NCBI GenBank assembly: GCA_038087875.1
Contig: CM075988.1
Location: 2,418,001 to 2,482,000, forward strand
From: Malacoraja senta
Lineage: Eukaryota
Reading direction: 5' to 3'
DNA length: 64,000 nt
Positions 16,887 to 63,245 of this stretch are shown in pieces. The first letter of the stretch is position 1. The number at the start of each line of letters is the position of its first letter. A program made the translations under genes and the position numbers. Below the pieces are notes generated by a model, which saw only the letters and a list, made by a program, of their open reading frames with translations, was not told the DNA's origin and made no database searches.

Positions 16887-17222
16887 AATAATAATAATAA
16901 TGGATGGGATTTATATAGCGCCTTTCTAATACTCAAGGCGCTTTACATCGCATTATTCATTCACTCCTCAGTCACACTCGGTGGTGGTGAGCTACTTCTG
17001 TAGCCACAGCTGCCCTGGGGCAGACTGACGGAAGCGTGGCTGCTAATCTGCGCCTACCACCACCAATCACTCACACACATTCACACACATTCACACGCAG
17101 GCAAAGGTGGGTGAAGTGTCTTGCCCAAGGACACAACGACAGTATGCACTCCAAGCGGGATTCGAACCGGCTACCTTCCGGTTGCCAGCCGAACACTTAG
17201 CCCATTGCGCCATCTGTCGTCC
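16887..17222 (-). mobile_element. Apparently complete tRNA-derived CORE-type SINE with L2-like tail
   Basis: Minus strand: A box TGGCGCAATGG, B box GGTTCGAATCC, CORE-like GTGTCCTTGGGCAAGACACTT, tail GTAAAGCGCCTTGAG...AAAGGCGCTATATAAAT then (ATT)n. Confidence 0.8.
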
Positions 17223-17769
17223 TGATAGCATGAGTCGACACTCCACACTTGTCCTGGTTTCCCATTCCTGGAATTAGATGGCAGGTAAAGCAAAGCCTCA
17301 GTTGGTGGATTGCTGAATCATTGCCCCTGAGCCACCTTGACAGAGCATGAGGTTGGGACACAGCCTTGCATTTAGTTCAGTTTATTGTCACTTGTACTGA
17401 GGTACAGTACAGCTACATTACAAGGTACAGCTTGTTTTGTTAATGTGGTCATAGCCAGACATGTTTGAGAATAAACTTAAATCATTGTATTAAAAATTAA
17501 CATTAAGTAAATTAAAGCAATAATAGATAAAAACAAAATAATGTAAAAAGGCAACAGAAAACTTCATATTTTCTTTCTAATCTCCATTTTGAGATTCTTA
17601 TTCAAGTAAAATGTGATTCTGATCTAGTGCAAGTGATGGTGAACAAAGGCTTCTTTGGTTAAACGGTACGTTATTGTGGTGGGGGAGTTGAGGGAATGTG
17701 GAAGGTGTCGCACATCGGTCGATGGCGTGCTTATCTTTGAAACCCCCAGATAGTAGAATCTGGGCTAAC

Positions 17770-18270
17770 TGAGAGGGTCCAGAGGAGGTTTACAAGAATG
17801 ATCCCAGGACTGAGTAGGTCCACCAATGTTGAGCGTTTGTCAGCACTGGCCTGTACCTGCTGGAGTTTAGAAAAATGAGGGGGGGACTTCATTGAAATGT
17901 ACAGAATAGTGAAAAGCTTGGACAGAGTGGATGTGGAAAGGATGTTTCCACTAGTGAGAGAGTCAAGGACTAAAGGTCATAGCCTCAGAATTCAAGGATG
18001 TTTTTTTAGGAAGGAGATGAGGAGAAATTTCTTCAGTCAGAGGGTGGTGAAACTGGAATTATTTGCCACAGAAGGCTATGGAGCCAAGTCAGTGGATATT
18101 TTTAAGGCAGAGATAGATAGATTCTTGATTAGTACAGGTGTCAAAGATTATGGGGAGAAGACAGGAGAATAGGGTTAGGAGAGAGAGATAGATCAGCCAC
18201 GAATGAATGGCGGAGTAGACTTGATGGACCGAATGGCCTAATTCTACTCCTATCACTTATGACCTCATGA
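17770..18270 (+). mobile_element. CR1 LINE 3' fragment
   Basis: ORF 17897-18172 (LDRVDVERMFP...RTKGHSLRI...RRNFFSQRVV) and CR1 tail. Confidence 0.85.
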
Positions 18271-18575
18271 ACTTCATCCCTTTTACTCTTTCTGGTCACC
18301 ATGAAGATTTCCAAATTCTTTCCCTTACTTAGGCCATTCCATGAGTGCTCCAGTTCACTTGAAGCAATCGATTCTATCGGATTGTTTTAGTCCGAAAATG
18401 AATGTAAATTGAAACAATGTAAGAAGCAAAGATAATATGAAGCAATTACAAATCCTCATTGACAATAAATTGAAATGTTGAACTGATGATCAGTGGCACT
18501 GGGGAAATGAATTAGAAGGTTGGGTTGCATTAAACAGTCATTATTAAACTAACAAAGTAATCTTACTGCTTTATA

Positions 18576-21500: not shown

Positions 21501-22467
21501 GGGAGATGCAGCGAGACCTGGGTGTCATGGTACACCAGTCATTGAAAGTAGGCATGTAGGTGCAGCAAGCAGTGAAGAAAGCGAATGGTATGTTAGCTTT
21601 CATAGCAAAAGGATTTGAGTATAGGAGCAGGGAGGTTCTACTGCAGTTGTACAGGGTCTTGGTGAGACCACACCTGGAGTATTGCGTACAGTTTTGGTCT
21701 CCAATTCTGAGGAAGGACATTATAGCCATAGAGGGAGTGCAGAGAAGGTTCACCAGACTGATTCCTGGGATGTCAGGACTTTCATATGAAGAAAGACTGG
21801 ATAGACTTGGCTTATACTCGCTAGAATTTAGGAGATTGAGAGGGAATCTTATAGAAACGTACAAAATTCTTATGGGGTTGGACAGGCTAGATGCAGGAAG
21901 ATTGTTCCCGATGTTGGGGAAGTCCAGGACAAGGGGTCACAGCTTAAGGATAAGGGGGAAATCCTTTAAGACCGAGATGAGGAAAAACTTTTTCACACAG
22001 AGAGTGGTGAATCTCTGGAACTCTCTGCCACAGAGGGTAGTTGAGGCCAGTTCATTGGCTATATTTAAGAGGGAGTTAGATGTGGCCCTTGTGGCTAAGG
22101 GGATCAGGGGGTATGGAGAGAAGGCAGGTACGGGATACTGAGTTGGATGATCAGCCATGATCGTATTGAATGGCGGTGCAGGCTCGAAGGGCCGAATGGC
22201 CTACTCCTGCACCTATTTTCTATGTATCTATGTAAGAAGAAAGCCATTGTTGAAAAAAAGCCATAAGAAGTCCCGTTTGCAGTTTGCCACAAGCCATGTG
22301 GGGGACACAGCAAACATGTGGAGGAAGGTGCTCTGGTCAGATGAGACCAAAATTGAAGTTTTTGGCCTAAATGCAAAACTCTATGTGTGGCGGAAACCTA
22401 ACACTGCACATCACCCTGAACACACCATCCCCACTGTGAAACATGGTGGTGGCAGCATCATGCTGTG
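18576..22467 (+). mobile_element. Passport/PPTN-like Tc1 transposon, split by a CR1 and cut off by an assembly gap
   Basis: TA|CAGTGGCTTGCAAAAGTATTCA terminus with inner direct repeat at about 18769. Transposase IIRKWKEYGTTANLPRHGRPPKL...GLYGRVA[CR1]RRKPLL...KVLWSDETK...KHGGGSIML. Confidence 0.88.
19297..22233 (+). mobile_element. CR1 (HER1-like) LINE with near-complete ORF2 (APE endonuclease + RT) and two in-frame nonsense codons
   Basis: ORFs 19343-20938, 21008-21559 and 21560-22141 share one frame. Motifs CLNARS, ETW, GDFN, SDH, PQGSVLGP, KFADD. Target duplication AAGAA at 19292-19296 and 22234-22238. Confidence 0.97.
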
Positions 22468-22667
22468 NNNNNNNNNNNNNNNNNNNNNNNNNNNNNNNNN
22501 NNNNNNNNNNNNNNNNNNNNNNNNNNNNNNNNNNNNNNNNNNNNNNNNNNNNNNNNNNNNNNNNNNNNNNNNNNNNNNNNNNNNNNNNNNNNNNNNNNNN
22601 NNNNNNNNNNNNNNNNNNNNNNNNNNNNNNNNNNNNNNNNNNNNNNNNNNNNNNNNNNNNNNNNNNN
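22468..22667. other. Assembly gap (200 N)
   Basis: Run of N. Confidence 1.
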
Positions 22668-23460
22668 CAACGCCGATAACGGGGACGGATTTCACACGCG
22701 GGACAGGTAAACGAAAGTGGTTTCTTTAAATGTATAAAAGTGCTTCTTAAGAAGCCTTTAATTCACATTTTTTCATGCGACACGGTGATTTTATTCCCCG
22801 AATTAACGGCAGTATTTTTCATGCCAATACGGGGTTAAATTCACCGCAAATTAACGTTCCAAAAGATCGCGTTCCAGAAATCCTCACTCACAAGATGATT
22901 TAAATCCCCATTAATTTACAGTTATTAAACATTCAATTCCTTCCATTTGGCCTGTAAATTCATGAAAATGAGATTTAAAAATTATGTTATATTGTGAATT
23001 ATTGTGTGAATGTTATTTGGACACTTAGGCTATTTAAAAATGTTAATCTATTCTTAAGAAATTGATAGATGTTTAGATCTAGTAATTGAATTTTGTAATT
23101 AGCTACAATTAGGTAACTAACTAATTATATGCTTTACTTTCATGTCTTCTAAGTAAGATTGTTTCATATTTGTTTCAGAATGCTTCAATCTATAATAACT
23201 GAAAATGTCTTTCAGTTATCTTAATTTTTAAGAAAGTTATGGGCTTTTAACTGTCCTCGATCACAGCTTTTGTGTTAAGTCAATGGAAAACCAATAGGGA
23301 ACAAGATGCTAATTTCCGAGTATGAAAATGGCCATAACTTCTTTAATACTGAAGATATGAAAGTGAATTATGTGTCAAATTAAACTTCTTTTTATGCTTT
23401 AGCTGATGGGATAAATTGCAGACTTTATTTTTTAAATCTCAAAATTTTGTAACATTGCTA
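22668..23460. mobile_element. Second, inverted copy of the 13423-14466 hAT-like element, truncated by the gap
   Basis: Reverse-complement similarity throughout; ends TTTTGTAACATTGCTA. Confidence 0.8.
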
Positions 23461-23519
23461 CCTTATGCCACTGGAATCTTGACTTTCTGACTCAGACTAC
23501 ACTCAGTAAGGATAGGAGG

Positions 23520-28649: not shown

Positions 28650-31600
28650 TACTATTCGAGGATCAGACTGGAATGTCAAGATTGTCCTTGGCTCCTTTGC
28701 TGTAGTCCCAATTAACATCAATTCTATATCTCCTTCATTTAACTTCAAAGCAGGCATGAATTCATGGGCATCTTTAGCTTTAAGACTGATTTTATTTGAT
28801 TAACTATCTCCACCATTTCTTCCATTCTCTAAGTCTATGGGGCTAGCCGTCCAGTATCCTCCACAATTGTAAACACAAACATACCTTTTCTGCCAGCTTC
28901 TTGTAATTCTGCTCCTAATCTCCTACCTAAAGTTTTAGTCTGCCCCTAATAAATAATTTCAGCTGGGCTCAGTCTAGATTTCCCTGCAGGCGTGACACGC
29001 ATCTGAAACAAAGCTATGGGAAGTAATTTGATCCAACCAATTCCTGGCTCCGCCTTCAATTTAGTTTTCAGGGTCTGATTTGCCCTTTCTACAAGTCCAG
29101 CAGCCTGTGATCAATAAACACAGTATAATTGCTGCTGAATGCCCAGCTGTTCACAGAACTCTTTATTAATTTACCCAATAAAATGTGGAACATTGTCTGA
29201 ACTAAATCGAATAGGGATACCAAATCTGGGGACAATTTCTCTCATTAACACCTTGATAACAGTAGCCGCTTTGTTATCAAGTGTTAGATAGGCCTCGACC
29301 CACCTGCTGAATCCACTATTACGAGTACATATCTGTATCCCTAGCATTTTTCTAGCTCGATATAATCCATCCGTCAAATTTCAAAAGGACCCATGGGCAA
29401 AGGTGTCTTCCCGTCTTCACAACCCGCTCCTTTTCTGGGAAATAAGGCAACAGCTACTCACTTTCTGGGTCAAAGTTTGTAATCTTGGATGCCACCAAGT
29501 AGATAAGAGAGCATCTCCAATTGCTCTCATACCGCAATGAGTCGCAAAATGCATACACACCACAACCCAAACTACAAGAGGATCAGTCATACAAGTCTGC
29601 CCTGCCGGAGTAATCCATAACCCCGTCAGTGGCGGCGTGCCTTGCAGCTGCGGCTCGCCTGCAGTCCGTTTGTCTTTTCTTTTTTTGTTTTCTTTTGTCC
29701 CGTTGTTGCGGTTTGTTTTGGTTTATTTTAGTTGTGTATGTGTGGGGGGGTGGGAGAAGCATGTTTTTTGGCTCTTCCTTCAGGGGGGATGCGACATTTC
29801 TTGCCGTATCCCCTGTCTCCGTCTCCGTCTGCGCTGAGGCCTAATCGCGGAGCTGGCGGCCTCCAACTGGGACCGACCTCGGGGCTCGGGAGGCAGAGCC
29901 AGCCGGGACTTGCCAGCGCGGGGCTGGCCGACTTCGGGACTGTGGTGGCGTTGTGACCCAACTTCCGACCCGACTTCGGAGCCTCAGAGGCTCGGCGAGG
30001 GCCAGTGGACGACATCGTCGGGAGCTCGCAGGTCACAGGTTGGTGACCTGTTTTTCCGTAGCTCCCGCAACAACAGCTGCGTCCGCTGGACTGGAGGGCG
30101 GCAGCTTCGGCAGCTTCGACCGCCCTGGGCCGCGGAGTTTGAACCGGCCCGTTCGGATTCAGCCGCGGGACTTACTTACCATCACCCGGCGGGGTCACAA
30201 CATCGGAGGCCTGGATCGCCTCAGCGCAGAGGGAGAGCAAGGAGGGAAGAGACATGGATTTTGGGACTTTTTGCCTTCCATCACAGTGAGGAGGTGCCTG
30301 GTGGACTCACTGTGGTGGATGTTAAACTGTGTTGAGTGTGTGTTTTTGTTATTTATTCTATGTTATGACTGCAGGCTAAACCATTTTGTTGCACTGAAAA
30401 GTGCAATGACAATAAATTGAATAAAAATCAAATAAAAATCAAAACAGTCTATTGTGTACCCAAGCTGTTTCCATAGTTTTACATCCCCTTCAGAAGCCTC
30501 TTCCTGCAACTGAATAATTTCCTGGATGGTTGGCATTGGCTTTTCCGAGGGAGACTTGTTACTTAAACCTTTAGTCTGCCTCATTTTTGGCACCACCATC
30601 TTACGTTCCCGGGATACTTCCTTTCCTGCTTGATCAGCACAACGATTACCAATGTCTGTCGGGATCTGTCCTCTTGTGTGTGCATTACACTTCATTACTG
30701 AAATTTGTCTGGCTAGAATCAGGGCCTTTAATAAATCTGTCACCAATTGCATATTAGATATTTGAGTTCCTGCCGAGGTTAGGAATCCTCTATTCCTCCA
30801 TAGTTGCCCGAAATCATGTACTACTCTGAATGCATATCTAGAATCTGTATATATGTTCACCCTTATAATGTTCACAATAATGCAAGCCCTAATTAATGCA
30901 AACAATTCAGCCTGTTGTGCTGAATAGGGTGACTCAAAGGCAGCTGCTTCTACATTGTTCCCATCTTGATCTATAATAGCATACCCAGACAATTTCTCAC
31001 CCCAGGGTTCAATGGATGTACTCCCATCTACGTACAACGTCATGTCAGGGTCCTCTATAGGAGCGTCTCTTAAATCCTCCCCTACAGATGTCTCCTCGAT
31101 TATAAACAAACAGTCATGTCCGGCCTCTGACTGCTCCTCTGGTGAAACTAGAAAAGATGCCGGACTAATTGTTGTACAATGTTTAAATTGGAGTTTTGGA
31201 TTGTTCAATAAGTAAATTTCATATTTATTTTGACGAGCCATTGTTAGGTGCTCAGTTTGGAGCTGTCCTAACAAGGCTGCCACAGAATGGGAACTGTATA
31301 CTACTATCTCCTGCACTAAGGTCATATTTGCAGCAGACTGTAAACTATTATAAATGGCGGTCAGGATCTGGGTGCATAATGGGTGTTCCCTTGCTACTGG
31401 ATCAAGTTTGGATGAATAATAAGCCACCGGTCTGTGCCCGTGGTTTTGGGTGAGGACCGCAGTCGAGTACTCAGAATAGTACAGTAGAGTTGGAAGGGTC
31501 TGTCACAGAGTGGTCTTCCTAGTGCTGGGGCCTGCATTAATGATCTCTTCAGATTTCAAACGCCTCCTGAGCCTCTTGGATAATTGGAATTTACCCTCCA

Positions 31601-32620
31601 AACTAGGGATAGGGTGTCAATTCTTTGGTATCTAGTGCAATATTAGGGATCTTGGGTCTTCAGTAATTCACCATACTATGAATTGTCTCATTTGTTTTGC
31701 TACTTTAGGAATAGGAAATTCACAAATTGGTTCGAGTCTGCTCTTTTCTAAACTTCTTTCTGTAGCCGAAATTATCACTCCTAAAAATGTCACTCTTTGT
31801 TGAGCCATCAATACCTTGGACTGAGAGACCACATATCCTAAATTTGCCAGATGATTCAATAATTGAGCAGTGTCCTCACGATTACTTTGCTCATCTATAC
31901 TAGCTACCAACAAATCATCCACGTATTGTACTACAGTGGAGTTTCTTTTAAAACGCAAAGTGCTTAACTGTTCTTGAAGACATTGAGAAAACAAGGTAGT
32001 TGAATGAATGAATCCCTGAGGTAGTCTTGTCCACGTATATTGTTGTCCCCTGTAAGTAAAGGCAAATAAATAGAGGCTGTTCTTATGTAGAGGTAATGAG
32101 AAGAAGGCATGTTGCAGGTCTACAATGGAAAAGATTCTTGCTTCTGCTGGAATTAGAGCTAGGATATGAGCAGGGTTTGGCACCAGAGTATGGAGCGGTT
32201 CCACAACTGCATTAATTGATCTTAAATCTTGGACTATCCTGTACTGGCCCTCTTTTCCTGCTTTTGGCACTGCAAGGATTGGTGTGTTGCAAATAGACTG
32301 GCACTTCACTAAGATGTCTTATTCCAGCAATCCCCGAATTAACTTGTCTATGCTGGGAATGGCCTGTTGTTTCAATGGGTACTGTTGTATCGAAGGCAGT
32401 GTCACCGCTTTCTGGAGAGCTACTTGGATGGGATCAATGCGAACACATCCTACCTGAGCTGCATTTTCTGCCCACACTTGCAGGTCCACATACTCACATA
32501 CCTTACTCCCCAGATGGAACCCAGCAGTTCCCACCCTTGCTTCCCTTAGCATCCTCAGAACGATCCCATCAGGTGCCACTATAATGCGCTTCAATATATC
32601 TAACACTTCCTCCTTCTTCA
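28650..32620 (-). mobile_element. pol: Degraded class I (epsilon-like) endogenous retrovirus: RT, tether, RNase H, integrase and an env-like fragment
   Basis: RT 32309-31668 (YRIVQDLRSIN, DLQHAFF, WTRLPQGF, QYVDDLL). Tether AYYSSKLDPVA. RNase H LYVDGS, SAQQAELFAL, IYTDSRYAF. Integrase HFATHCG, FSRWVEAY, IVPRFGIP..SSDN, LSPAEII. Several frameshifts and deletions; no gag or adjacent LTR. Confidence 0.93.
29627..30444 (+). mobile_element. Non-autonomous internally deleted LINE derivative (copy B), inserted between RNase H and integrase
   Basis: 5' GTGGCGGCG...GCAGTCCGT, hairpin 30277-30319, CAATAAA then A-rich repeat tail, CAGT at both junctions. Closely similar to 62440-63245. Confidence 0.75.
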
Positions 32621-33060
32621 TATGCTCTGAAGTAGCCCTCTCTTAACCTGCCAGCCTCCATGTCCTTCTCCCGGTGAATGCCAAGAAGTACTCATTTAGA
32701 GACTTGCTCAAATCTTCTGGCTTCACACATGGATTATCTCTTTGTTCCCTCACGGAACCTATTCATTCTGCAGCTGCTGTCTTGATTCTAATATACTTAA
32801 CATTTTAGGATTCTCCTTAATCCTACTTGCTAAACTAATTTTTTGACCCCCTTTTTCCTCATCTAATTTCTTTACTTCTATCCTGTATACCCTATAAAGC
32901 TCCAAGGATTCGCGTAATACCAATTTCCGATATGTGACATGCACTTAGCAAGCCTTCAATATTGTTAACCAAAGTTCCCCAAGCTTTCTATCTGTGCATC
33001 TCTTACACTTTTGACGAGATTTCCACCAATCTGCTTACCACCCAATTTACCATCTTGTGT
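32620..33060 (-). mobile_element. Old CR1 ORF2 fragment
   Basis: LASRIKENPK and NEYF remnants of the CR1 linker region. Confidence 0.55.
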
Positions 33061-39084: not shown

Positions 39085-39965
39085 AATTCAATTCAATTCA
39101 ATTTTCAATTCAATTTATTTGTCTTTTTTGACAAATTTGTCATTTGGACCCCTTGAGGTCCAAACGAAATGTCGTTTCTGCAGCCATACAATACAAAACG
39201 AAGAAGACCCGAGACACAACACAATTTACACATACATCCATCACAGCGCTGTGATGGAAGGCAAAAAAACGTATCTCTCCACTGCACTCCCCCCCCCCGA
39301 TGTCAGAGTCAAAGTCAAAGCCCCCGGCGGGCGATGGTGATTGTCCCGCAGCCATTAAAGCCACGCCGGGTGATGCAAGGTCGCGCACCGGGTCTTGGTA
39401 TTAGAGCCCCGGCACGCGCCCGCAAAGTTCGGCGGCCATTCCAAGCCGCGCGGGGGGATAAAGCCCCGCTCCAGGTGCTCTTCAACCCCGCAACTCGGGC
39501 GGGAGAAGTCGCCGCTGCGGAAGCCCCGAAAAGCGGTCTCCCACCAGGGACCCGCGGGCTTACGGTGTTGCCGTCCGCCAGACCCGCGGTTGTAGCCTCC
39601 GAATCTCCGGCGGTCGGGTAGCAGCAGCGATTGTCTCCACCACAGCTCCACCCGCTCCGGACTCGGCCAGCCCCGCGACGGTGAGTAGTCCGCAGCTCCA
39701 CGGGAGTCCCAGGTCGTTCCTGCTGGAGGCCGCTCCACGTTGCCCAGCCCCAACGACAACGGAGACCCGACAAAGAAAAGGTCGGGTCTCCCATGCAGCG
39801 GAAAGATTTCAAAGTTTCCCCCCCCCACCCCCACCCCCACCCCCCCACACACATACCCCGACAAAAAAAATAATAAAAAACTACATAAAAACGAGACAAA
39901 AATAATAAAAAGACAGACGGACTGCAGAGGCCGCTGCAGACGAAAGTCGCGCCGCCCACCGGATT
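39085..39965 (-). mobile_element. Non-autonomous internally deleted LINE derivative (copy C, divergent subfamily)
   Basis: 5' GGTGGGCGGCGC...CTGCAGTCCGTCTGTCTTTT, perfect 22-bp palindrome at 39237-39258, AATAAA and (TTGAA)n tail. Confidence 0.7.
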
Positions 39966-40924
39966 GTTGTAAGATAGCGGGAGTAACGTTCTGAACATTC
40001 TCTGGATTTTGGGGTGCCGAATTGGCAGATTTTCAAGACTTGGATTGAATTTTCATTAATACCTCAACGTTCTTTCAATTCATTCTTTTTGGATGCTACA
40101 GAGTACAATAATAAATTTGCCAATAAACCAGGTAAGTTGAAAAGAACTAAGGGCCTAGTTAGGAGGGGAGTGCAGGAACTGAGAACCTGGTGAGTTGGAG
40201 GGGAATGTGGAAATCTGAACTGCAGTGAGTGAGATTGGGGAACAGGAACTGAGGCCCAGGTGAGTGTGAAGGGAGCGTGGGATTCCGGTCCAGGATTGCT
40301 AAAGAGGTCAATACAGCTAGAGCCCTAGTGTGTGAAAAGGGAGTTCAGCAAACATCAGCTGGTGGGCCAGGTGCCGAACTGACATTTCCTAATAGTCAAG
40401 AGAGCAGACATCGGAATTGTAGTTTCTTATTCACTGGCCAGGGGTTAAGGATCACAAAACAGCAGAAGCTGGAATCTTTTTGGAACTGCTGCCTGATCTG
40501 TTGAGTAACTTTAGCACTATCCATTGATGAAGATTAATTGCTTTGAAACATTAGCTCTGTTCTTTCTCCATGGAATACTTCCTGACCTGCTGAGCATTTC
40601 TGGTATTTTCCCTTCTAAGGCTGCAGATTTTATCTTTTATGTTTGATTAGCTTATTACATATCTCTTTCATTTAAAATGTCTCTATATCTTTGATGTCAG
40701 CCAGTTCAGAGCTGCCAACTCTCACGCATTGAGCATGAGATACACGCATTTCACTCAGTTCTCATGCTGATCACAAATTTCTCACACTCTGTAGTGAGAA
40801 ATTCTGTGATCAACGAGAATTTCAAAACTAATATCAACTGCTTGTGTGCGCGTCTGTTGACAAGACAGCAGCATTCTTATTTTCTGTTATTCTCACTTGA
40901 CCAAACCGTCACACACCTCCAAAC

Positions 40925-42280
40925 CATGCCATATAACCATCTAACCATATAATAATTACAGCACGGAAACAGGCCATCTCGGCCCTTCTAGTGCCGAACA
41001 CTTACTCTCACCTAGTCCTATCTACCTGCACTCAGACCATAACCCTCCATTCCTTTCCCTTCCATATATCTATCCAATTTATTTTTAAATGATAAAATCG
41101 AACCTGCCTCCACCACTTCCACTGGAAGCTCATTCCACACAGCTACAACTCTCTGAGTAAAGAAGTTCCCCCTCATGTTACCCCTAAACTTTTGTCCCTT
41201 AATTCTCAAATCATGTCCTCTTGTTTGAATCTTCCCTACTCCCAATGGAAAAAGCTTATACACGTCAACTCTGTCTATCCCTCTCATAATTTTAAAGACC
41301 TCTATCAAGTCCCCACTTAACCTTCTGCGCTCCAAAGAATAAAGACCTAACCTGTTCAACCTTTCTCTGTAACTTAGGTGCTGAAACCCAGGCAACATTC
41401 TAGTAAATCTCCTCTGTACTCTCTCTATTTTGTTGACATCTTTCCTATAATTTGGCGACCAAAATTGTACACCATACTCCAGAATTGGCCTCACCAATGC
41501 CTTGTACAATTTTAACATTACATCCCAACTTCTATACTCAATGCTCTGATTTATAAAGGCCAGCACACCAAAAGCTTTCTTTACCACCCTATCTACATGA
41601 GATTACACCTTCAGGGAACTATGCACAGTTGCCCCTGTCCCACTTAGGAAACCTGAACGGAAACCTCTGGAGACTTTGCGCCACATCCAAGGTTTCCGTG
41701 CGGTTCCCGGAGGTTTTTGTCAGTCTCCCTAATGGTTGAAAGTGGTTTCCGCTTCTTCTATGCTCCGGCGATTATTTCAAAAAATTCTAAACCGGCTTTG
41801 ACTAAAAATAGGTTGCCGTTTTAAAAATCGGTAATTTTTTAGTTGAAGCCGGTTGCGATGCTAGTTGAAGGTGGTTGCCGGAGGTTGCAGGTAGTGCAAG
41901 GTAAGACCTTTTTTTCACCCAGTTTTATTCCACCAGGGAGGTCTTACCTTCCACTACCTGCAACCTCCAGCAACCACCTTCAACTAGCATCGCAACCGGC
42001 TTCAAATACCGATTTTTAAAACGGCAACCTATTTTTAGTCGCGGCCGGTTTTGAATTTTTTGAAATAATCACCGGAACATAGAAGAAGCGGAAACCACTT
42101 TCGACCATTAGGGAGACGGACAAAAACCTCCGGGAACCGCACGGAAACCTTGGGTGGGGCGCAAAGTCTCCAGAGGTTTCCGTTCAGATTTCCTAAGTGG
42201 GACAGGGGCGTTATTCCTAGATCCCTCTGTTCAACTGCATTCCTCAATTCGCTACCATTTACCATGTACCATTTACCATT
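40925..42280 (-). mobile_element. CR1 3' fragment (second subfamily), interrupted by a MITE
   Basis: ORF 41587-41018 (LYKALVRPILEYGVQFWSP...FFTQRVVAVWNELP), continuing at 42210-42280. ACCAT at both ends. Confidence 0.92.
41631..42209. mobile_element. Almost fully palindromic PIF/Harbinger-like MITE
   Basis: TIR GCCCCTGTCCCACTTAGGAAA / TTTCCTAAGTGGGACAGGGGC with long imperfect arms. 3-bp duplication GTT at 41628-41630 and 42210-42212; removing it restores the CR1. Confidence 0.88.
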
Positions 42281-42702
42281 GCACTGCCCCCATGCAAATT
42301 AACATTGAAAGATACGGACTGGGCAGTGAATGACATGCAGTGTCACCCAGCGCAGCAAGTAAGGCCATGTCCTGCTCCCGGCGGCAGTCAGAATTTAAGG
42401 ATTTGCGGGAAGCGGCTGGCATGAGCGAGGCCAGCGAGCGGCAGGAGAGAGGTACATGGGCCGCGGAACCGGTGGGGGGGGGGGGGGGCTGCAGCCTCCC
42501 TACTTTTTTGGCTAGACATGTTTCAATGTCTCCGGCTTTGGACAAGGCACTGCTGTGCTCTGAGCAACCTGGTCGTGGCTGTTGGAGAGCCAGGGCGGAG
42601 GGAGGGATGAAAGCAGAAGCAGTGGTGGGGGCAAATGCGGACGGGGAGCTAGGGCTGGCGAGTGTTTGCCGGGCTGGCGAGTCGCTCGCTGCAGCTCCGG
42701 CC

Positions 42703-42856
42703 ATGGAGCAGCCTCATTGCCAGCGTTCCGAGCCTTCGGAGACATCAGAAGTATTGCGCCGCTGCCATGAGAGTCTGTGCCGAATTCGCCCAGGTGACCG
42801 GCATGGACCAGGCTGCGGCTCGGTGCGTCCTGGAGGACAACCAGTGGCTGCTGGAA
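42703..42856 (+). pseudogene. TDP2: TDP2 exon-1-like fragment (N-terminal UBA-like domain), apparently frameshifted and orphaned
   Basis: CAEFAQVTGMDQAAARCVLEDNQWLLE aligns with recalled vertebrate TDP2 CVEFASVASCDAAVAQCFLAENDWEME and ends at GAA|GTAAGT. The strong-Kozak ATG at 42703 is out of frame; an in-frame ATG exists at 42767. No later TDP2 exons recognised. Confidence 0.6.
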
Positions 42857-45479
42857 GTAAGTACCAAGTAGAAGTGGTGGAAGATAGTGGCCTTCAAATG
42901 GGGGCGGTTGGCGAAAGCATCCTGCTTGTCTGCTAGATTTTCACTTACTGTAACTGCAGGAACAATGTTCCCGATGTTGGGGGAGTTCAGAATCAGGGGT
43001 CACAGTTTAAGAATAAGGGGTAGGCCATTTAGGACTGAGATGAGGACAAACTTTCTTCACCCAGAGAGTTGTGAATCTGTGCAATTCTCTGCCACAGAAG
43101 GCAGTGGAGGCCAATTCACTGGATGCTTTCAAGAGAGAGTTACATTTAGGTCTTGTGGCTAGCGAAATCAAGGGTTATGGGGAAATAACAGGAAAGAGGT
43201 GATTTTAGATGAACAACCATGATCATATTGAATGGTAGTGCTGGCTTGAAGGGCCGAATGGCCTACTCCTGCTATTTTCTATGTTTCTATGCTTGAGTAT
43301 ATGGCAATAAGACTCGACCACTTGATTTTGAAGCATTCATGCATGGTGGAGGTATAATGTAGTCATAAAGTGATACAGTGTGAAAACAAGCCCTTCGGCC
43401 CAACTTGACCACACCCGCCAACATGTCCCCGCTACATTACCTGCTTTTGGTCCATATCCCTCCAAACCTGTCTGATCCATGTATCAGTCTAACTGTTTCT
43501 TAAATGTTGGGATAGTCCCTGCCTCAACTACCTCCTCTGGCAGCTTGTTCCATACACCCACCACCCTTTGTGTGGAAAAAGTTACCCCTTAAAAGGTTAC
43601 CTTAAAAATACTTCAAACAAAAACCATTGAAATCAAACTTCTACAATGCACTAAAACATGATTTTAATACATCAAATTTCAAAAAGTCCCTACCAAACTT
43701 GGTTGCTCCACTGCCTTGCCGGGTACCCCTAAGGCCAGTGATCAGTGATCGCTCAGCCCTCCCACTTTCAAAAACGCTCTGCGGCCCCTGGTTCAGACGG
43801 AGGGCACTGCCAGATGTGAGTGGGGAACTGAGGTCAGTTGTCCATGATGCCTGGATCCCAATGCTCAGCGCTTCGTGTTTCGGAGTTGGCTAGTGTTATT
43901 GATTTGTAATTAGACTGATTTGTAATTAGTTGACAAAACCTTAATTTATTAATCCGGAATATCCAGGGGGATGTGATAAGTGTAATATTAAAATGACATG
44001 CAAGGTGTCAGGCTGTCTGTCACAACATATAGCCCCGAGAACCCATTATTTCCTTCAGTTAAATATTGGGAAGGTAACACTATTGTCATTTGCCACTCAA
44101 CTATTATGTTTGTTTACCTCACTGACTATTTCTAAACCCCCGCCCCCCCCCCCCAAATCCTTTGACAGGTTGAATAGAAATGTCCCCAATCTCGTTGTTT
44201 TATTAATTGAACATGTAGACGAACATCCTCAAGGAATGTAATCAGATGGAAACTGATTCAGATGCGATGTTTAAGAGTTTGTTCAAAGAAGGGGCATATT
44301 TTAAAGGAGTGACAGAGATACTTGCAGGGGAATGTGTAAGGAGGTTATTATTTGTCTTTAGTTTTAGCTTGAACCAGGACATCTGAAGATTCAAAGTTTA
44401 ATATAGTAATTGTGCTGATACTGATTCCAACCAACAAATTAATGAATATCATCCATTCTGGAGGTTTTATTTTTCTGATGCCATTTAAACTTCACTTGGA
44501 TTTCAATCACTTCAATGTAAAAGTAATTGGGAATGGGGAGCATTGGAACAAAATTTTGCCCTCAGTACATATTAACTGTAATATAATAATGTATGCATGT
44601 TGGTAGGTACAATCAAAACAAAGATCTTTTTTTATCATTGTTGTGTTTTGAATAATACAGAAAATATTATGTACTCTCAAGATCACATTAAATAGAATAT
44701 TATTCCTTAAATATATATTGTTATTGGACTTTGCATTTCCGAAAAGTCCCAGCTGAGAGGAAGACAGCAAAATACTGAAAATATTGGGGTGAAAATGACT
44801 TCAGGACAGTTTGTTAGGAAAATGAAGGAAATGGTAACAGAATACATACAGCTGAGTGAGTATAATTTTATGGATGAGAAATTGTGTTCAACCAATTGAT
44901 GACTTATTTGCCAAAGTAACTAGCATGTTGGATAACAAAGAAGCCAATGGATGTAGCAAATATTGTTATACAAAATTTGGTCCGTGAACAGCCCCATAAA
45001 AGATTACCGTATTAGATAAGCACCTGTGAACTTGAACGGTTAAGTCCAGGGGGTCAGATATGGGGCTTTATCTGTGGCCCAGATATATTGTCAGTACAGA
45101 GGGGCTAGGTGCAAGGCCAAGTGTGCATCCAGTGTCAAGGTCTGGAATGGTACTAGGTGTGCAGTCAAAGCTGGGACAATGGGAGTGTTCAGCACTGGGA
45201 ACCTAAGCAGGTAAGCAGCTATGATCAGGATAGAATAGGGGGCCAGGTTTAAGGCTGGACTTAGGGTTAGGAATGAGAGAAGGTATGTAACTGGAGTCAG
45301 GGTCAGCAGCAGTACCAGGTGTGCAGTGAGACCCAGGTTGGTCAACATGGGCCAAGTGCTTGATTATAATCTGATTTCCATACATGAATACACTAAGATC
45401 ATTCATGTGCTGCACCTGTTGATCAGAGCCTGGCTCTACTGTGGAATGTAATCAGGAATGTAATTTAGCCTAACCTTAT

Positions 45480-45704
45480 AGCTAATCCAATTTAAAGCAT
45501 AAATATTGCATTGAAGTGTAAGTTAAAAGACTCGCTACAGAATGCACCAGATTGCACAATTTTAAGCTGAAAATGCACAAGTTCTGCACCATGGGAGGGG
45601 ACACACCCCCCCTCCCACACCCTCCCCAATCCATCGGTCGCTACACTCCCTCAGGTCTCTCGCAATTTATCACTCCCGACGCTCACCCAATGTTGGCAGC
45701 CCTG
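45480..45704. mobile_element. hAT-like right terminus
   Basis: Ends GTTGGCAGCCCTG, a 12/13 inverted match to the terminus at 40707. Confidence 0.5.
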
Positions 45705-46852
45705 CAGTAACATACTCAGCCAGTAACATACATTACCACCATCGGTGGTCATATCTCATATGCTTTTAAAAAAAATATTCATATATTTTCTGTTTTGTTC
45801 CCTATTTTTGTGCCTGTGTTGCTGAGATGAAGTGATTACAGATCCTTAGCTTCTAGTTTTATACAGCTCTGATTAGGCCTGTAAATGTTGTAGATTGTTT
45901 GCCTTTTTGCCAATCTGTGGATAAGCTAACACGGCTGTTGAAATGATGAATGAGATAACTAGTAGCAGTTATTGTTGGAACTAAGTCATGGGGATACATG
46001 ATGATAAGGAATTAGAAATGTGCCGTCTGGCAGGTTTTTTTGCTAGGCTCATCCGTAAAGCTCGTCTTGTCTGCTGCTTCTGCATTGAGGTATATTGTAT
46101 TTTTCTGCTTTATCACTGAGTGCCGTTATATCCCTCTGGATTGGTCAGAAGTAATTCTCTCTTTCCTTTGCAATCCTCAGTAGAACCATTCTGGAGATGT
46201 TAAAGTAAGAATAGGCATAAATTGAAATTTGAGGAAATTGCTCGCTATTAAAAGGGGTTAGTGGGAATAGTCATATTGTTTTAAAAAAACAAAACTGGAA
46301 ACACTCATCTGTGGGAAGAGAAACAGAACTGAGGAAGAATCCTCGACCTGTTAGCTCCAGTGTTAGAACATGGCTAGTTTGAATGTACCTGTGGTCCTGG
46401 ATGGTCTCTATAGTTAAAGGGTAGAATTTGAGTTGAACTGAAGGCATTTGCTAAAGAAGGACATGGCTGTCAAAATATGTTATGGTGAAAGCTTATCAAA
46501 GACTAGTGGGTAAGATAAACTGCAAAATGAACAAGACAAAAGAGACAGATGGAAATTCTGTGGACAGCAGAAGAGGACTTCAAGGTTGGATGAATGAAAT
46601 AGTGAATGAAAGTTTAAAATAATTGCATCTAATAGAAATCTGAAATTAATACAAAATATGCTGGAAACACTCAACAGGTCAGGATGCATCTGTGGGAAGA
46701 GAAATAGTTACCGCTTCTGTCCGATTCCCTTTGTCAGTCTTGGACCTGAAATGTTAACTATTTCTCCTTCCACTAATACAGACTGACCCGACATTATTTG
46801 CTTAAGACTTCAAATAACCTACTTTAAATTTTGCTAAAATTGGCAGCACTAA

Positions 46853-47580
46853 AGGGCCTGTCCCACTATGGCGACCTAATTTGCGACTTGAGTTTGCGCT
46901 CGCCACAAACTCTTAGCATGGTCGACACATGGTCCTAGGAGGTCACTGTAACTCTCCTTCATGCTCGAGAGAAGTTCCCGCATAATCGCGGCCTCAGTTT
47001 GGTCGAGGAAAAATTTTCAACATGCTGAAAATTTTTCCACGAGTAAAAATTGGTCAGTATGGTTCTTTTGAACTCGTAGTGCTGTGGTAGTGGGGTCGCC
47101 ATGTAGTTATAGGTAGCTGTAGGCAATCTCCTTTGCTGACCGGGCATTTTAATTGGCTCATTGGGTGGAACAAACGTAAGCACGAGTTTTCAGAACCAAG
47201 GAAAACCGACCGGTAATGTTAAATGCCCGCTAAACTTTATTAAAAGTTGTCTGGCTTCTTAAAAGTGTCTCCCCCCCTTCTCCCCCCCCCCCCCCCCCCC
47301 GGCTCTTTTAAAGGACTTACCGTACACTGTGCCAGCCGTCTTTTACCTTCCTGTTCATCGCGGCTATCACCTTGGCTTTGCACCATGTGAATTTCAGACA
47401 GCGCTCCCCCGGCTTTCCCTGGCCCCCGCCTTTGCGATGCGTTTGTGTGTGTGTGCGGTCGGTCGATCCAGCTCGTGGTTTCATCGCTGACAGTTGATCC
47501 AGCTCGCGGTTTTTCAGCCGAGTGCCCCCGAGCTTGGTCGACGACAGTTGCTGAAAAGACGCGGCAGTGGGACAGGCCCT
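46853..47580. mobile_element. PIF/Harbinger-like MITE
   Basis: 15-bp TIR AGGGCCTGTCCCACT / AGTGGGACAGGCCCT in a TAA/TTA-like context. Confidence 0.8.
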
Positions 47581-51919: not shown

Positions 51920-52119
51920 NNNNNNNNNNNNNNNNNNNNNNNNNNNNNNNNNNNNNNNNNNNNNNNNNNNNNNNNNNNNNNNNNNNNNNNNNNNNNNNNN
52001 NNNNNNNNNNNNNNNNNNNNNNNNNNNNNNNNNNNNNNNNNNNNNNNNNNNNNNNNNNNNNNNNNNNNNNNNNNNNNNNNNNNNNNNNNNNNNNNNNNNN
52101 NNNNNNNNNNNNNNNNNNN
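51920..52119. other. Assembly gap (200 N)
   Basis: Run of N. Confidence 1.
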
Positions 52120-54069: not shown

Positions 54070-54325
54070 GATTAGAGATATTCCTTTATTTGTCATTCAG
54101 ACCTTTCGGTCTGAACGAAACTTTGTTGCCTGCAGTCATACATATAATAATAAATAACAAAACACACAATAAACACAAATTAACATCCACCACAGTGAGT
54201 TCACCAGGCACCTCCTCACTGTGATGGAGGCAAAAGTCTTAAAGTCTCTGTCTCGTCCCGCTTTGTTCTTCCTCTGCGCTGAGGCGATCCAGGCTTCTGA
54301 TGTTGTGACCCCGCCGGGTGATGGT
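54070..54325 (-). mobile_element. 5'-truncated internally deleted LINE derivative (copy D)
   Basis: Matches 62460-62700; hairpin arms at 54186-54199 and 54215-54228. Confidence 0.7.
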
Positions 54326-55599
54326 AAACAACATGCTAGAGGAATTCAACAAGTCAGGCAGCATCTGGGGACAGAATGGATAGGTGACATATTGGGTTGG
54401 AACCCTTCTTCAGTCTTCAGATATAAAAAGGACCAGAGAGGCACGTTTTTCCACACAAGGTGTAGTGGGTTTATGGAACAAGCTGTGGATATAGATGGAG
54501 AGGCAGGTATAATTATGTTTTAAAGTAGATAGAAGCAAAGTGCTGAAGTAACTCAGCAGGTCGGGCAACATCTCTGGAGAAAAGGAGTAGGTGGCGTTTT
54601 GGGTTGAGACCCTTCTTCCGGGTATTTGGATAGGTACAGGGAATAGAAAGGTTTAGCATGGCAGCGGCAGATAGAAGAAAAGAATGATGCCGTTGAGCGA
54701 GCTAATGTCTCACCTCCCGTGCCCTTGGAGGCTTTTGGGTATTCCGTGGTCAGCTGATGGAGGCGCCCTGGGACAAGAAGGGTGAGTGGTGGCCTTCTGA
54801 CACGAGGATCTGCGGAAGCATCGGTTGAGGGCACAACACATCGCCAGGCCAGGACGACCCATGTAAATCAAACCCAGTGCCGTCACCAGGACAACATGCC
54901 TTTATGGCCAAGATAGGACAAACATTTTTGAACAACTCTGAGCTAGAAGGGTACAATAATGGTGCTGGAACCGTGGTGACTCTTGGGCATACTGCCCCAG
55001 TATAATCTTCTATTTTACATTCTTGTACTTGTATGATTGTACCTGGGATTGTTTGTGAAATGAATGCAAAAAATAATTTCAGTGTACCTAGGTTACGGTA
55101 CATGTGACAATAAAGTACCATTGAACCATTGAGAGTGACATGGGCAAAATGCAGGCAAATGGCACAAGCTCAGGGAGACTTGGTTGTGATGGATTAGTTA
55201 GGTTGAGGGGCTTGTTTCCATGATTCAATCAAGAAAAACGATCTGACTAAATTCCTGTTTGAAAAGTCCTAAGCTTGTTCTCAAGGTTGAGAACTGCCCC
55301 GAATGTCTGGGTGTCCGTTCCTGCAGTAATTGTGACTAAGTACAAGTAGAATCAGAGTCGTGATTCTCCAGCATCATCTGGAGAATGTCAGCAAGACTTT
55401 ACACCACTGTTCATCCCATATGAAGTTGAGTGACAACAGTGTGACACATCTGATGGCACCTGTCACTCAACGTATCAGACTTCGAGCGGATCCACATGAG
55501 TCCTGGACCTATTCGTGTGCGAACAGCTAAATGCCACTGATCTTCTTGGGAATTGGCAGCAAGATTCAACTGATAAAAATAATCAGAATTTAAAAAATA

Positions 55600-58778: not shown

Positions 58779-60146
58779 TGTGTAATATATCCCAAGGTTT
58801 GCTAATAATATAAAGCTAGCTGGCACTTTGAACTGTGAGAAGTATGCAGAGGCTTTGGGGGATATAAACAGGCTAAGTAAATGGACAAAGACATCTTGAA
58901 GGAATATATAAGAAAAAAATACAATGTTATACACTTTGGTGGAAAAAAAATAGAAATGTAAAATATATTTTAAATCGTGAGAGATTAATGGTTTTTAATG
59001 TTCAGAGGCGATCTGTGTCCTGGTCCACAGATTACTGATGCTCAGTCACTGAATATATTGGATTTTTAGAAATGAGGGAACTGAGGTATACGAGGTGAGT
59101 GCAGGAAACTGGCACTGTAAAAGATCACCCATGTTTCTGAGTTGGGGAGTGTGATTGAGGCACTCTATAAATGCCGTTTCTTGAGGGAGCACATCCTCTT
59201 GAGCTTTGTCTGCATTCAAATTCTCTCCCATGGACCCACTGTCAAATATTGAACAATTTTCCATTTAAACGTTACTCTCCAAACAATTTTGTCATTGATC
59301 CTAATTCCATCTAATTAATGTTAAACAGTTGTGCTAAAGATGGGAAATTCTTCACGTGAAGGATCCAACAGGATGAATGTTCGTCTCCTGTGTGTCAGGT
59401 GACCCTGGCTGTGTCCTTCAGCGGCCCAGATTTAGCAAACGTTGTCACGAGTCTGAGTATAAAGTGGAACTCTTCCCTTGCAAACCAAGTCCTGCCCTTT
59501 TACTGGAGGCACCACCAGCTTTTGAGCTTAGCATGCACTCTAGGTATTCGATGCTCACATCACTGGGCAGATCTGCTCAAGCTTCACTGCTGTGCTCGGG
59601 TTGCTTTTTTCGCATTTGTTTGTGACAGGCTCTTCATCCCAAGTGGTCCATGCCTCAGCTCAGCTACTCCCATATCCTTCAAATCCTTTCCTATCCATGT
59701 ACCTGTCCAAATATCTTTTAAATGTTTAGTTTAGTTTATTGTCACGTGTACCGAGGTACAGTGAAACGCTTTTCTTGCGTGCCAACCAAGTCAACAATGC
59801 ATGATTACAATCGATCCATTTACAGTGTATAGATACATAATAACGTTTAGTGCAATGTAAAGCCAGCAAAGTCCGATCAAGGATAGTCCGAGGGTTATTA
59901 AAGAGGCAGATAGTAGTTCATCACTGCTCTCTGGTTGTGGTAGGAGGGTTCAGTTGCCTAATACAGCTGGGAAGAATCTGGTGGTGCGCTTTCACACTTC
60001 TATACCTTTTCATTATAGCATTATACCAGCATCAACTACTTCCTCCGGCAGCTCGTTCCAATTACCTTGCACCCTCTCTAGTTCTTTATTCCCAAAACCT
60101 GAGAAAAAGACTCTGCATTCATCCTATCTATTTCAACAAGAATTTA

Positions 60147-62215
60147 CAGTGCCCTCCATAATATTTGGGACAAAGACCCATCATTTATTTATTTGCCTCT
60201 GTACTCAACAATTTGAGATTTGTAATAGAAAAAAAAAACTGTGGTTAAAGTGCTCATTGTCAGATTTTAATAAAGGCCATTTTTATACATTTTGGTTTCA
60301 CCATGTACAAATTACAGCAGTGTTTATACAGGATGCCCCCATTTCAGGGCACCATAATGTTTGGAACACAGCATTGTCATGTAAATGAAAGTAGTCATGT
60401 TTAGTATTTTGTTGCATATCCTTTGCATGCAATGACTGATTGAAGTCTGCGATTCATGGACATCACCAGTTGCTGGAAGTCCTCTCTGGTGGTGCTCTGC
60501 CAGGCCTGTATTGCAGCCATCTTTAGCTTATGCTTGTTTTGGGGGCTAGTCCCCTTCTCTTCAGCATATAAAAGTCATGCTCAATTGGGTGCAGATCGGG
60601 TGATTGACTTGGCCTATCAAGAATTGACCATTTTTTAGCTTCGAAAAACTCCTTTGTTGCTTTAGCAGTATGTTTAGGATGTTTAGGATCATTGTCTTGC
60701 TGTAGAACAAGTTAGGTCTTTATTCTTTGGAGCGCAGAAGGTTAAGAGGGGACTTGATAGAGGTCTTTAAAATTATGAGCGGGTTAGACAGAGTGGACGT
60801 GGATAAGCTTTTCCCATTGAGAGTAGGGAAGATTCAAACAAGGGGACATGACTTGAGAATTAAGGGACAGAAGTTTAGGGGTAACATTAGGGGGAACTTC
60901 TTTACTCAGAGAGTGGTAGCTGTGTGGAATGAGCTTCCAGTGGAAGTGGTGGAGGCAGGTTCGATTTTATCCTTTAAAAATAGATTGGATGGGTATATGG
61001 ACGGGAAAGGAATGGAGGGTTATGGTCTGAGTGCAGGTAGATGGGACTAGGGGGAAGTAATTAATTTTTAAAAAAAGTGTTCGACACGGACTTGAAGGGC
61101 CGAGATGGCCTGTTTCCGTGCTGTTATGGTTATATGGTAGAATGAACTGCCGGCCAATGAGTTTTGAGGCATTTGTTTGAACTTGATCAGATAGGGTGTG
61201 TCTATACACTTCAGAATTCATTATGCTACTACCATCAGCAGTTGTAACATCAATGAAGATAAGTGAGCCAGTTCCTTCAGCAGCCATACATGCACAGGCC
61301 AAAACACCCACACCACCGTGTTTCACAAATGAGGTGGTATGCTTTGGATCTTGGGCAGTTCCTTCTCTCCTCAATACTTTGCTCTTGCCATCACTCTGAA
61401 ATAAGTTAATCTTCGTCTCATCTGTCCATAAGACCTTTTTCCAGAACTGTGGGTACGCTTTTAAGTACTTCTTGGCAAACTGTAACCGGGCCATCCTATT
61501 TTTGCAGCTAACCAGTGGTTTGCATCTTGCAGTGTAGCCTCTGTATTTCTGTTCATGAAGTCTTCTGCGGACAGTGATCATTGACAAATCCACACCTGAA
61601 TAGTGTTTCTGATCTGTCGAACAGGTGTTTGGGGGATTTTTCTTTATTATAGAGCAAATTTTTCTGTCATCAGCTGCAGAGGTCTTCCTTGGCCTGCCAG
61701 TCCCTTTGCGATTAGTAAGATCACTAGTGCTCTCTTTCTTTTTAATGATGTTCCACACAGTTGATTTTGGTAAGCCTAAGGTTTGACTGATGTCTAACAG
61801 TTTTATTCTTGTTTCTCATAATGGCTTCTTTGACTTACATTGGTACAACTTTGGTCCTCATGTTGATAAACAGCAATAAATGTTTCCAAAGGTGAAGGAA
61901 AGACTGGAGGAAAGACTAGGTGCTGAGAGCTCTCTGATACCTGCATTAAAGAGGCATTTAAGCACACCTGAGCGATTACAAACACCTGTGAAGCCATGTG
62001 TCTCAAACATTATGGTGCCCTGAAATGAGGGGACTATGTATAAACACAGCTGCAATTTCTACATGGTGAAACCAAAATGTATAAAAATGACATTTAATAA
62101 AATGTGACAATGTGCACTTTAACCACATGTGATTTTTTTCAATTACAAATCTCAAATTGTGGAGTACAGATAAATAAATTATGGGTCTTTGTCTCAAACA
62201 TTATGGAGGGCACTG
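60147..62215 (-). mobile_element. Second copy of the IR/DR Tc1 family, interrupted by a CR1 and itself nested in an older CR1 (about 59620-62325)
   Basis: TA duplication, same TIRs as 10879-13280, transposase ORF from 61758 (KVLWTDETK, KHGG). Confidence 0.95.
60708..61136 (+). mobile_element. CR1 3' fragment inserted in the Tc1 transposase
   Basis: GTAGAA duplicated at 60702-60707 and 61137-61142; same subfamily as 40925-42280. Confidence 0.92.
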
Positions 62216-62439
62216 TATATACCTCTATACAATTCCCCTTCATGATACTGCACTCCAAGGAATAAAGTCCTCACCTGCCCTATAATTCAGGCCCCTGAGT
62301 CCGGATAACTTTCTCGTAAATCCTGGGGCGGAAAGCAGTGATTTTTCTCTTGAAATCTGCTTCTGGTGGATGAAACATTTCCTTTTATAATCCTGGATCA
62401 TTTTTCAAAAAAAGTTCACTTGTTAAATGCACCATATAA

Positions 62440-63245
62440 GTAAAGTAAAGTAAAGTATCCTTTATTGTCATTCAGACATTTCAGTCTGAACGAAATTGTA
62501 TACCTTGCAGTCATAACATAGAATAAAATAACAAAATACACACTTAACACAGTTGAACATCCACCACAGTGAGATTACCTGGCACCTCCTCACTGTAATG
62601 GAAGGCAAAAGTCTCAAAGTCCTTATCTCTTCCTTCCTTGTTCTCCCTCTGCGTTGAGGCGAACCAGGCTTCCGATGTTGGGACCCCGCCGGGTGATGGT
62701 AAGTCCAGCGGCCGCATCCGAGCTCCGCGAACGGGCTGGTTCAAACTCCGCGGCCCGGGGCGGTCGAAGCTGCCACCCTCCAGTCCAGCGGACGAAGCTG
62801 TCGTTGCGGGAGCTCCGGAGAACCGGTCACCAACCTGGGACCTGCGAGCTCCCGACGATGTCGTCCACTGGGCCCGCGGCCGAGCCTCCGAGGCTCCGAA
62901 GTCGGGTCGCCGCCGCAGCAACGCCACCACAGCCCCGAAGTCGGCCAGCCTCGCGTTGGAAAGTCCTGGCTCTGCCTCCGGAGCCTCGAGGTCGGTCCTA
63001 GTTGGAGGCTGCCAGCTCCGCCATTAGGCCTCAGCGCAGACGGAGACGGTGACGGGGGATACGACAAGAAAAGGCCGCATCCCCCCGAAGGAGGAGACTA
63101 AAAACAGTTTCTCTCACCCCCCCACACATACACAACTAAAATAAACGAAATAAACTAAACAACAGGACAAATGAAAACAAAAATAGAAAAGACAGACGGA
63201 CTGCAGGTGAGCCGCAGCTGCTTGGGCAGCGCCACCACTTCCGGA
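62440..63245 (-). mobile_element. Full-length internally deleted LINE derivative (copy E)
   Basis: 5' CCGGAAGTGGTGGCGCTG...CTGCAGTCCGTCTG, hairpin at 62560-62602, CAATAAA and (TACTT)n tail. Confidence 0.75.

Follow-up and report, generated by a model that had tools for sequence, protein, structure and literature searches.

The 64,000-nucleotide stretch analyzed here (the window) is from contig CM075988.1 of Malacoraja senta. At 40707-45704 it carries what is very probably a multicopy, non-autonomous transposon with terminal inverted repeats (TIRs), which captured the 5' end of the DNA-repair gene TDP2 as DNA and was copied in trans by the transposase of a partner. Its class is likely hAT-like cut-and-paste. 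An earlier note on this DNA had proposed a Pack-type element bounded by an imperfect terminal pair at 42455 and 43790. The Pack-type spread was upheld with respect to exon 1 with its donor, captured as DNA, to the multiple copies and to the TIRs, but not with respect to the inner pair as the mobile unit. The outer element was regarded as the mobile unit because the repeat crosses the inner ends and stops at the outer terminus, and because a sister copy (P0003) joins the outer arm to TDP2.

The UBA-like coding stretch ending at GTAAGT, and its assignment to TDP2, agreed with what the earlier note had read from the letters. The stretch 42773-42856 matched Pfam UBA_4 with an E value of 2.5e-05, and its product was identical to TDP2 of Leucoraja erinacea at 25 of 28 amino acids. 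In the other frame, 42703-42780 showed 50% identity to the first 28 residues of the same protein. The 3' boundary of the exon reads GAA followed by the donor GTAAGT at 42857, and the captured exon ended exactly where skate TDP2 proteins go on with RALNSYF. Of two ATG codons further upstream, the one at 42607 lined up with the ORF (open reading frame) starts of the sister copies and the one at 42703 with the start annotated in L. erinacea. Homology to the Amblyraja radiata TDP2-like model extended upstream to 42551; the 29 residues preceding it in that model had no counterpart in 42270-42550. The best protein matches were in the skates L. erinacea, A. radiata, and Rhinoraja longicauda. The exon region had a GC content of 0.65 and a CpG observed/expected ratio of 0.72. 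Other UBA-like parents (p47, ARIH, and TAP-C) were rejected, their matches being far weaker than TDP2. The best PDB match of one sister copy was the TDP2 UBA domain (E 5.4e-05), with p47 at only E 0.27. Judged by sequence comparison, the cargo consists of the 5' region of TDP2 and its exon 1, splice donor included. The kept donor and intron start, together with the absence of exon 2, indicate capture at the DNA level and not a retrocopy. As a separate candidate, 42421-42445 was examined as native TDP2 upstream sequence and rejected (score 16.1, null mean 16.5).

The absence of catalytic-domain exons downstream, reported before, was also found here. A tblastn search with full-length TDP2 over the 64 kb returned exon 1 only, the next match having an E value of 0.77. 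No later TDP2 exon was found in the 21 kb downstream, a 200-N gap at 51920-52119 (9 kb downstream) aside. Filtering left 480 stop-free segments in the rest of the window; in the 442 of them that were scanned, transposon and retroviral domains alone passed or neared the cut-offs. TDP2 is syntenic with ACOT13 and KIAA0319 in mammals; no host-gene Pfam domain rose above the cut-off in the same scan, these two neighbors not having been searched for directly. With no EEP-domain exons behind the UBA exon, a broken frame, and high multiplicity, the locus did not have the features of a functional TDP2.

The same exon was found in four contig ORFs, P0001, P0003, P0008, and P0009. Three of them continued into intron sequence like that of the window, and the frame from ATG through UBA into the intron was open in three of the four, the ORFs having been found through being open. 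The window copy and all four ORFs had a short linker ahead of the UBA helix in common, and TDP2 of the three skates had a different, mostly longer form. The true TDP2 genes were also set apart in the tree (UFBoot 80, about 85 residues). The window copy carried 14 residues unlike the majority of the other rows, five of them at columns where all eight others agree. In P0003, residues 1-17 corresponded to 40794-40844 in the outer left arm, and residues 19 on to 42574 on, so that the outer arm stands in place of the inner left arm. The DNA-profile score of this outer-arm match was 47.0, which was reached by 0 of 300 resamples. The representative sequence library gave a single match, P0008. In the protein atlas the matches were UBA-like clusters of a generic kind, none above 0.85, and they were taken as leads only. 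Alignment-based searches for complete copies and their flanks gave 594 pattern matches in metagenome contigs and 558 in viral contigs, none of which was confirmed, and none of the 14 metagenome loci found by the DNA pattern resembled the window. In addition, a second TDP2-like gene model of A. radiata (XP_032895808.1) had a full catalytic domain and no UBA in the model. In addition to the exon-only family, skates may have a duplicated TDP2 gene.

The copy number of the family was assessed from four sequencing runs mapped on 42215-46200 at 85% likeness. X1, X2, and X11 were DNA-type runs from three organisms, related fishes that are likely skates; X15, guessed to be RNA, was judged probably DNA by the program, and its coverage included the intron-like parts. 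Part of 42300-43000 was present in 20 of 23 runs, none of which had half of its words; no RNA run was listed for it, and the runs with shares of 0.28-0.33 came under nine organism codes. The evidence comes from the four mapped runs and not from the other 19. The single-copy flank served as a control for spurious mapping. Beyond 45806 its depth was 22.7 in X1 and 29-34 in X11, with almost none in X2 and X15. In the four bins of 42348-42879, the summed contig depth was 35,124-430,702 (X1), 12,168-127,021 (X2), and 16,780-154,041 (X11). The exon/flank ratio was 560-19,000 in X1 and X11, and still 18-612 after division by 31, the worst-case contig overlap; the flank coverage of X2 was too thin for a ratio. 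One difference at 42579 was carried by 46, 71, and 68 distinct contigs in X1, X2, and X11, respectively. Summed contig depth is no copy number, and the order of magnitude alone was taken: the family probably has at least about a hundred copies and plausibly thousands. The window held a single copy of the TDP2-bearing repeat, and no tandem array.

The outer terminal pair at 40707 and 45704, mentioned in the earlier note as lying outside, was found with 12 of 13 bases matching. The outer element measured 4,998 bp in all, within the range used for Pack-TIRs (100-5000 bp inside, with both TIR ends), and 3,657 bp without its young insertions. It ends in CA...TG, with CAGRGCTGCCAAC-type inverted repeats. 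Depth was high up to the bin 45673-45805 and single-copy at 45739, which placed the right edge between 45673 and 45739, an interval that includes the TIR end at 45704. The right junction is real, since X1 record 8 bridged 45534-46200 and differed at one of 667 bases. One X11 contig, whose depth was single-copy, seemed to terminate within the element, some 24 bases from its edge, which suggests that the insertion at this site is shared and old. Taken unconditioned, a 12/13 pair was at chance level (60% of 200 resampled regions). With both edges fixed, it arose in 4 of 1000 resamples, and the outer pair was considered significant because the two edges were fixed independently, by depth and by P0003. 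Joints linking the inner region with the right part of the outer element were seen at 43445-45437, 43622-44649, 43758-45484, 43775-45484, and 43694-45607. They skip 0.9-2.0 kb and are consistent with internal-deletion subfamilies (among 15 of the 757 joints).

The frame offset described earlier was due to a loss of 2 bp behind 42773, which puts the two TDP2-like peptides out of frame. The missing TC was put back by 7, 5, 13, and 3 contigs, that is, in all four runs, by a minority of the local depth. Compared with the sister copies, 7 bp were also lost behind 42867, and these bases were restored by contigs in three runs. Both losses therefore appear specific to the window copy or its subfamily, as contigs restore the 2 and the 7 bases; the 2-bp loss could still be an assembly error. 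Moreover, a 200-codon frame ran through the exon at 42334-42936 on the forward strand. It had the frame and stop of the sister copies, with the UBA helices scrambled. This frame, which exists because the two losses total 9, is probably a coincidence. In X1, 206 places were changed over the mapped stretch (roughly 6%, to which the CR1 parts contribute), the commonest changes being T>C (42) and A>G (35). Having suffered two small deletions and the insertion of a CR1 and of a MITE (miniature inverted-repeat transposable element), the window copy would be old and inactive. The features of the element are listed in Table 1.

Table 1. Features of the TDP2-bearing element and its immediate flanks in the window.
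Feature	Position	Strand	Basis
Left half of possible 5-bp target duplication, CAGTT (right CAGTA; 4/5)	40702-40706	.	
Outer left arm; TIR 40707-40719, 12/13 to right TIR	40707-40928	+	P0003 join
Nested 5'-truncated CR1 long interspersed element, (CCATATAA)n tail 40929-40952; presumably a later insertion	40929-42269	-	
Palindromic MITE, 579 bp, inside CR1; GTT duplicated on both sides	41631-42209	.	
GC-rich family-internal segment, multicopy	42270-42454	+	Depth at 42333
Inner left terminus-like arm; abuts TDP2 homology start; internal to amplified unit	42455-42550	+	
Captured piece of TDP2: 5' region plus coding exon 1, with UBA domain	42551-42856	+	Protein/domain comparison
Splice donor GTAAGT (at 42857) and start of unspliced intron	42857-42954	+	Sequence, sister copies
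CR1 3' fragment, probably family cargo	42955-43291	+	Joint 42921-42965 (one X2 contig, depth 291)
Second CR1 3' fragment	43439-43591	-	X11 record 10 spans 43275-43490
Inner right terminus-like arm (left limit approximate); internal to amplified unit	43590-43790	+	Depth
AT-rich intron-like multicopy cargo (right limit approximate); no transposase	43791-45440	+	
Outer right arm with TIR at 45692-45704 (left limit approximate); high-copy repeat edge	45441-45704	+	Depth
Right half of possible 5-bp target duplication	45705-45709	.	

Several points weigh against a mobile outer element. The estimate of copies came from summed contig depth, and no ratio was computable for X2. The left edge rests on the P0003 join, the depth data starting at 42215. 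Most of the long joints had sides of 21-29 bases at 85% likeness and are singly unreliable. At the outer pair, an 8-bp duplication matched at 1 of 8 bases, and the absence of such a duplication stated in the earlier note thus stood for both pairs (2/8 at the inner one). The 5-bp flanks matched at 4 of 5 bases, with one mismatch and in one copy; near-matches of length 5-9 arise in 2.5% of random flank pairs. A scan of 78 of the 122 frame segments, those left over lying mostly in the CR1s or the MITE, revealed no transposase in this copy and no autonomous partner; a hAT transposase would have the dimerization domain PF05699. The hAT look of the ends is a general resemblance. Decay of the window copy at CpG sites is only partly supported, because single CpG transitions explain just 3 of its 14 amino-acid changes. 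The tree also lends weak support to paralogy (about 85 residues, UFBoot 80).

It is very unlikely that the smaller element at 42455-43790 is itself the mobile unit and merely landed within another repeat. The inner pair described before does exist, at 12 of 15 bases; such pairs were at chance level (74% of resamples, and 100% of 200 resampled regions when unconditioned). A 14/15 inner match was rejected as a G-run against a C-run. The two ends are exactly the best 37-base inverted match of their zones (24/37; 1.5-4% of resamples, the length being chosen post hoc, and 5% in an anchored test), and the TDP2 homology starts 96 bases inside the left end. Depth, however, was not at flank level at either inner end, contrary to 42455-43790 being the package. 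It was about equal across 42455 (40,890, 11,726, and 17,116 at 42333, and 32,853, 10,120, and 14,707 at 42579, in X1, X2, and X11), and X11 record 9, a diverged copy, spans 42404-42577. On the right it was about 1.2-1.3e5 at 43730 and 0.5-2.1e5 at 43850, and the bins 43811-45539 still had 1.1-4.5e5 in X1. Furthermore, no target duplication of any length from 2 to 12 was found at the inner pair, and P0003 has the outer arm in place of the inner left one. The inner right and outer right arms were not significantly similar (score 32, equalled by 5.6% of 500 resamples). The inner pair may be an older capturing element that is now a passenger.

It is extremely unlikely that the window holds exon 1 of the genuine TDP2 gene, or the family's parent locus, in which the first intron would be long, the 2-bp loss an assembly error, and the segment once mobilized as a composite by two transposon ends around it. 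Such a locus would fit the donor at the true exon boundary, the GC- and CpG-rich exon, and the 2-bp loss that could not be settled as real, and its further exons might lie beyond 21 kb or within the 200-N gap. However, the linker is unlike that of three skate TDP2s and like that of the exon-only copies, 14 residues deviate from the majority, a second loss of 7 bp is present, neither an exon 2 in the 21 kb downstream nor a host-gene domain in the 442 of 480 segments scanned turned up, and the repeat stops at a TIR 2.8 kb downstream. A single-copy real gene, which the earlier note had named as the outcome opposed to its proposal, is thus contradicted by the multicopy state, exon 1 standing alone, and the linker. 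Spread by another route (Helitron, core of a segmental duplication, satellite, or RNA intermediate), the inverted ends being coincidental, is highly unlikely. Helitrons have 5' TC and 3' CTRR ends and no TIRs. Neither a clean target duplication nor a transposase was found, and in bats, Helitrons have multiplied first exons roughly a thousandfold (PMC4224331); both would suit this route. Nevertheless, the repeat edge coincides with the 12/13 inverted pair, the ends are CA...TG, unlike Helitron TC...CTRR, the 64 kb hold one copy and no tandem array, and the intron and donor are kept, with no poly(A) at either end.

For the outer element as a mobilized capture, the following course may be proposed. 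In a skate ancestor, DNA near the TDP2 transcription start would have been captured via template switching or gap repair. It is conceivable, at somewhat less than even chances, that the smaller element (ends 42455 and 43790) captured first and was later swallowed by the outer one. Mobilization in trans would then have been by a transposase that fairly probably belonged to the hAT superfamily, possibly of the type with 5-bp target-site duplications (TSDs), and this partner would have moved the element to hundreds or thousands of sites. Cut-and-paste elements multiply by replication-coupled transposition and gap repair, and incomplete products are internal deletions (Ac/Ds-type); incomplete gap repair could likewise have given rise to the deletion subfamilies. 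At present the family most likely has no effect as a repeat, while holding ATG-UBA-donor cassettes in reserve. That some of what may be thousands of cassettes are used, as first exons grafting the ubiquitin-binding UBA domain onto host genes, as UBA-only microproteins, or as small-RNA sources acting on TDP2-dependent repair, is unlikely; if it were true, no Pack-TIR family known in animals would come near this one in size, and some of its copies would be in use. The plausibly thousands of natural replicates would allow asking whether a GC-rich first-exon cargo favors amplification and whether portable UBA exons are exonized. In practice, the family is a trap: in skates it will mislead the annotation of TDP2, the design of probes for it, and the mapping of reads.

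With regard to the other segments, the two CR1 pieces noted earlier in the intron-like DNA were both recovered, in opposite orientations. Loose contig ends were seen at 42269 in X2 and X11. The MITE was CpG-rich and almost fully palindromic, its arms having the first 21 bp identical and measuring 206 nt at 94% plus 70 nt at 96%, and the CR1 reading frame rejoins across it. Its 3-bp duplication presumably indicates the PIF/Harbinger type, and an end motif like that of the MITE was observed at 46845-46877. A weak, old CR1 reverse-transcriptase trace was found at 44941-45012. At 44140-44340 on the forward strand, a poly-C run and an AG acceptor-like site were followed, within the multicopy cargo, by a peptide weakly like RhoGAP12; if real, the TDP2 donor would have a further exon behind it. 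The candidate exon at 44160-44335 was, however, rejected as a second capture and treated as chance (RhoGAP12 E 0.57, the next frame nothing better than E 1.1). In the right flank, an 11-bp direct repeat occurred at 45705-45731, and TCAGCCAGT was found just left of the outer element and again 11 bp beyond its right end. A simple duplication may not describe the target site fully. Short hairpin-like inverted repeats lie 1 kb downstream of the outer element at 46677-46788 and 46998-47047 (arms of 41 nt at 76%, and of 25 nt at 84% with no spacer). Rfam gave no match in 40400-47200.

About 32% of the window matched other parts of it, with CR1, Tc1, and a retrovirus-like remnant among the repeats. 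The last is a broken pol remnant at about 28900-32700 on the reverse strand, with reverse transcriptase, RNase H, and integrase matches in separate frames. Related Tc1/mariner transposase remnants were found at 10876-13282, 22151-23461, and 60142-62220, and another family of GC-rich repeats at 29628-30416, 39499-39956, 54082-54425, and 62458-63239.

Capture by Pack-TIRs is known in itself. As far as sequence comparison goes, what appears to be new is that a vertebrate Pack-TIR has reached a very high copy number with a cargo that is coding and can be spliced. The literature search found no TDP2-capturing transposon in skates and, among the papers listed and judged by title or start of abstract, none on gene capture by transposons in elasmobranchs, Repbase and Dfam being outside its scope; an unnamed repeat consensus for the family may already exist. 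None of the matches listed for the TIR motif was relevant. The statement of the earlier note that such capture is rarely reported in vertebrates needs a qualifier. In the part available of Tan et al. (PMC8277862), 370 Pack-TIRs are described in 100 animal genomes, 208 of them hAT; only four are multicopy, the multicopy cases being GC-rich. Gene-fragment capture by animal cut-and-paste elements was accordingly thought to be almost only single-copy. The elephant shark, the only cartilaginous fish row seen there, has 0 Pack-TIRs, and the words skate and TDP2 were absent from the text and supplements searched of that paper.

The window element is like the animal Pack-TIRs (PMC8277862) in being a non-autonomous TIR element with an internal 5' fragment of a host gene, a non-transposon cargo whose parent, TDP2, can be identified. 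It is unlike them in that the cargo is a coding exon with a donor. Pack-hAT-N8_XT, for instance, carries the CAPSL 5' UTR in Xenopus tropicalis in three copies (PMC8277862, in part), whereas the family here is estimated at 10^2-10^3 copies or more, is shared by several species and has putative deletion subfamilies. As for the hAT type named earlier, the resemblance in TIR length and start was retained, and the assignment was weakened by the lacking 8-bp TSD, the 4/5 match at 5 bp, and the lacking transposase. According to the sections available of PMC3517528, PMC6004678, and PMC9004415, hAT elements have short TIRs of 5-27 bp and lengths under 4 kb, and the hAT MITE Mar starts with CAG-G. The window element has TIRs of 13 bp (12 matching), a CAG-G start, and 3,657 bp without young insertions. 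Unlike canonical hAT elements (Ac/Buster/Tip), it has no 8-bp TSD, and it was not filed as one because that test fails. The hAT5 group has 5-bp TSDs and is reported in fish (PMC9004415, in part); by comparison, the 4/5 match here comes from one copy, with no transposase to place it.

Bat Helitrons, HelibatN3 and others, carry promoters and first exons; a piece of NUBPL comprising its promoter, its first exon, and some of intron 1 has been spread by them to a thousand copies (PMC4224331). They are rolling-circle elements without TIRs, whereas the window element has inverted ends and its host is a cartilaginous fish. It resembles plant Pack-MULEs and Drosophila Ssk-FB4 (PMC8277862, in part) in that captured gene pieces are spread via TIR-element transposition. 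Those are of the Mutator superfamily, in which TIRs are long and TSDs measure 9-10 bp; in the window element the TIRs have 13 bp and a TSD of that kind is lacking. First exons amplified in mass have so far been known from bat Helitrons, and the TIR element described here would represent plant-like Pack behavior in a vertebrate.

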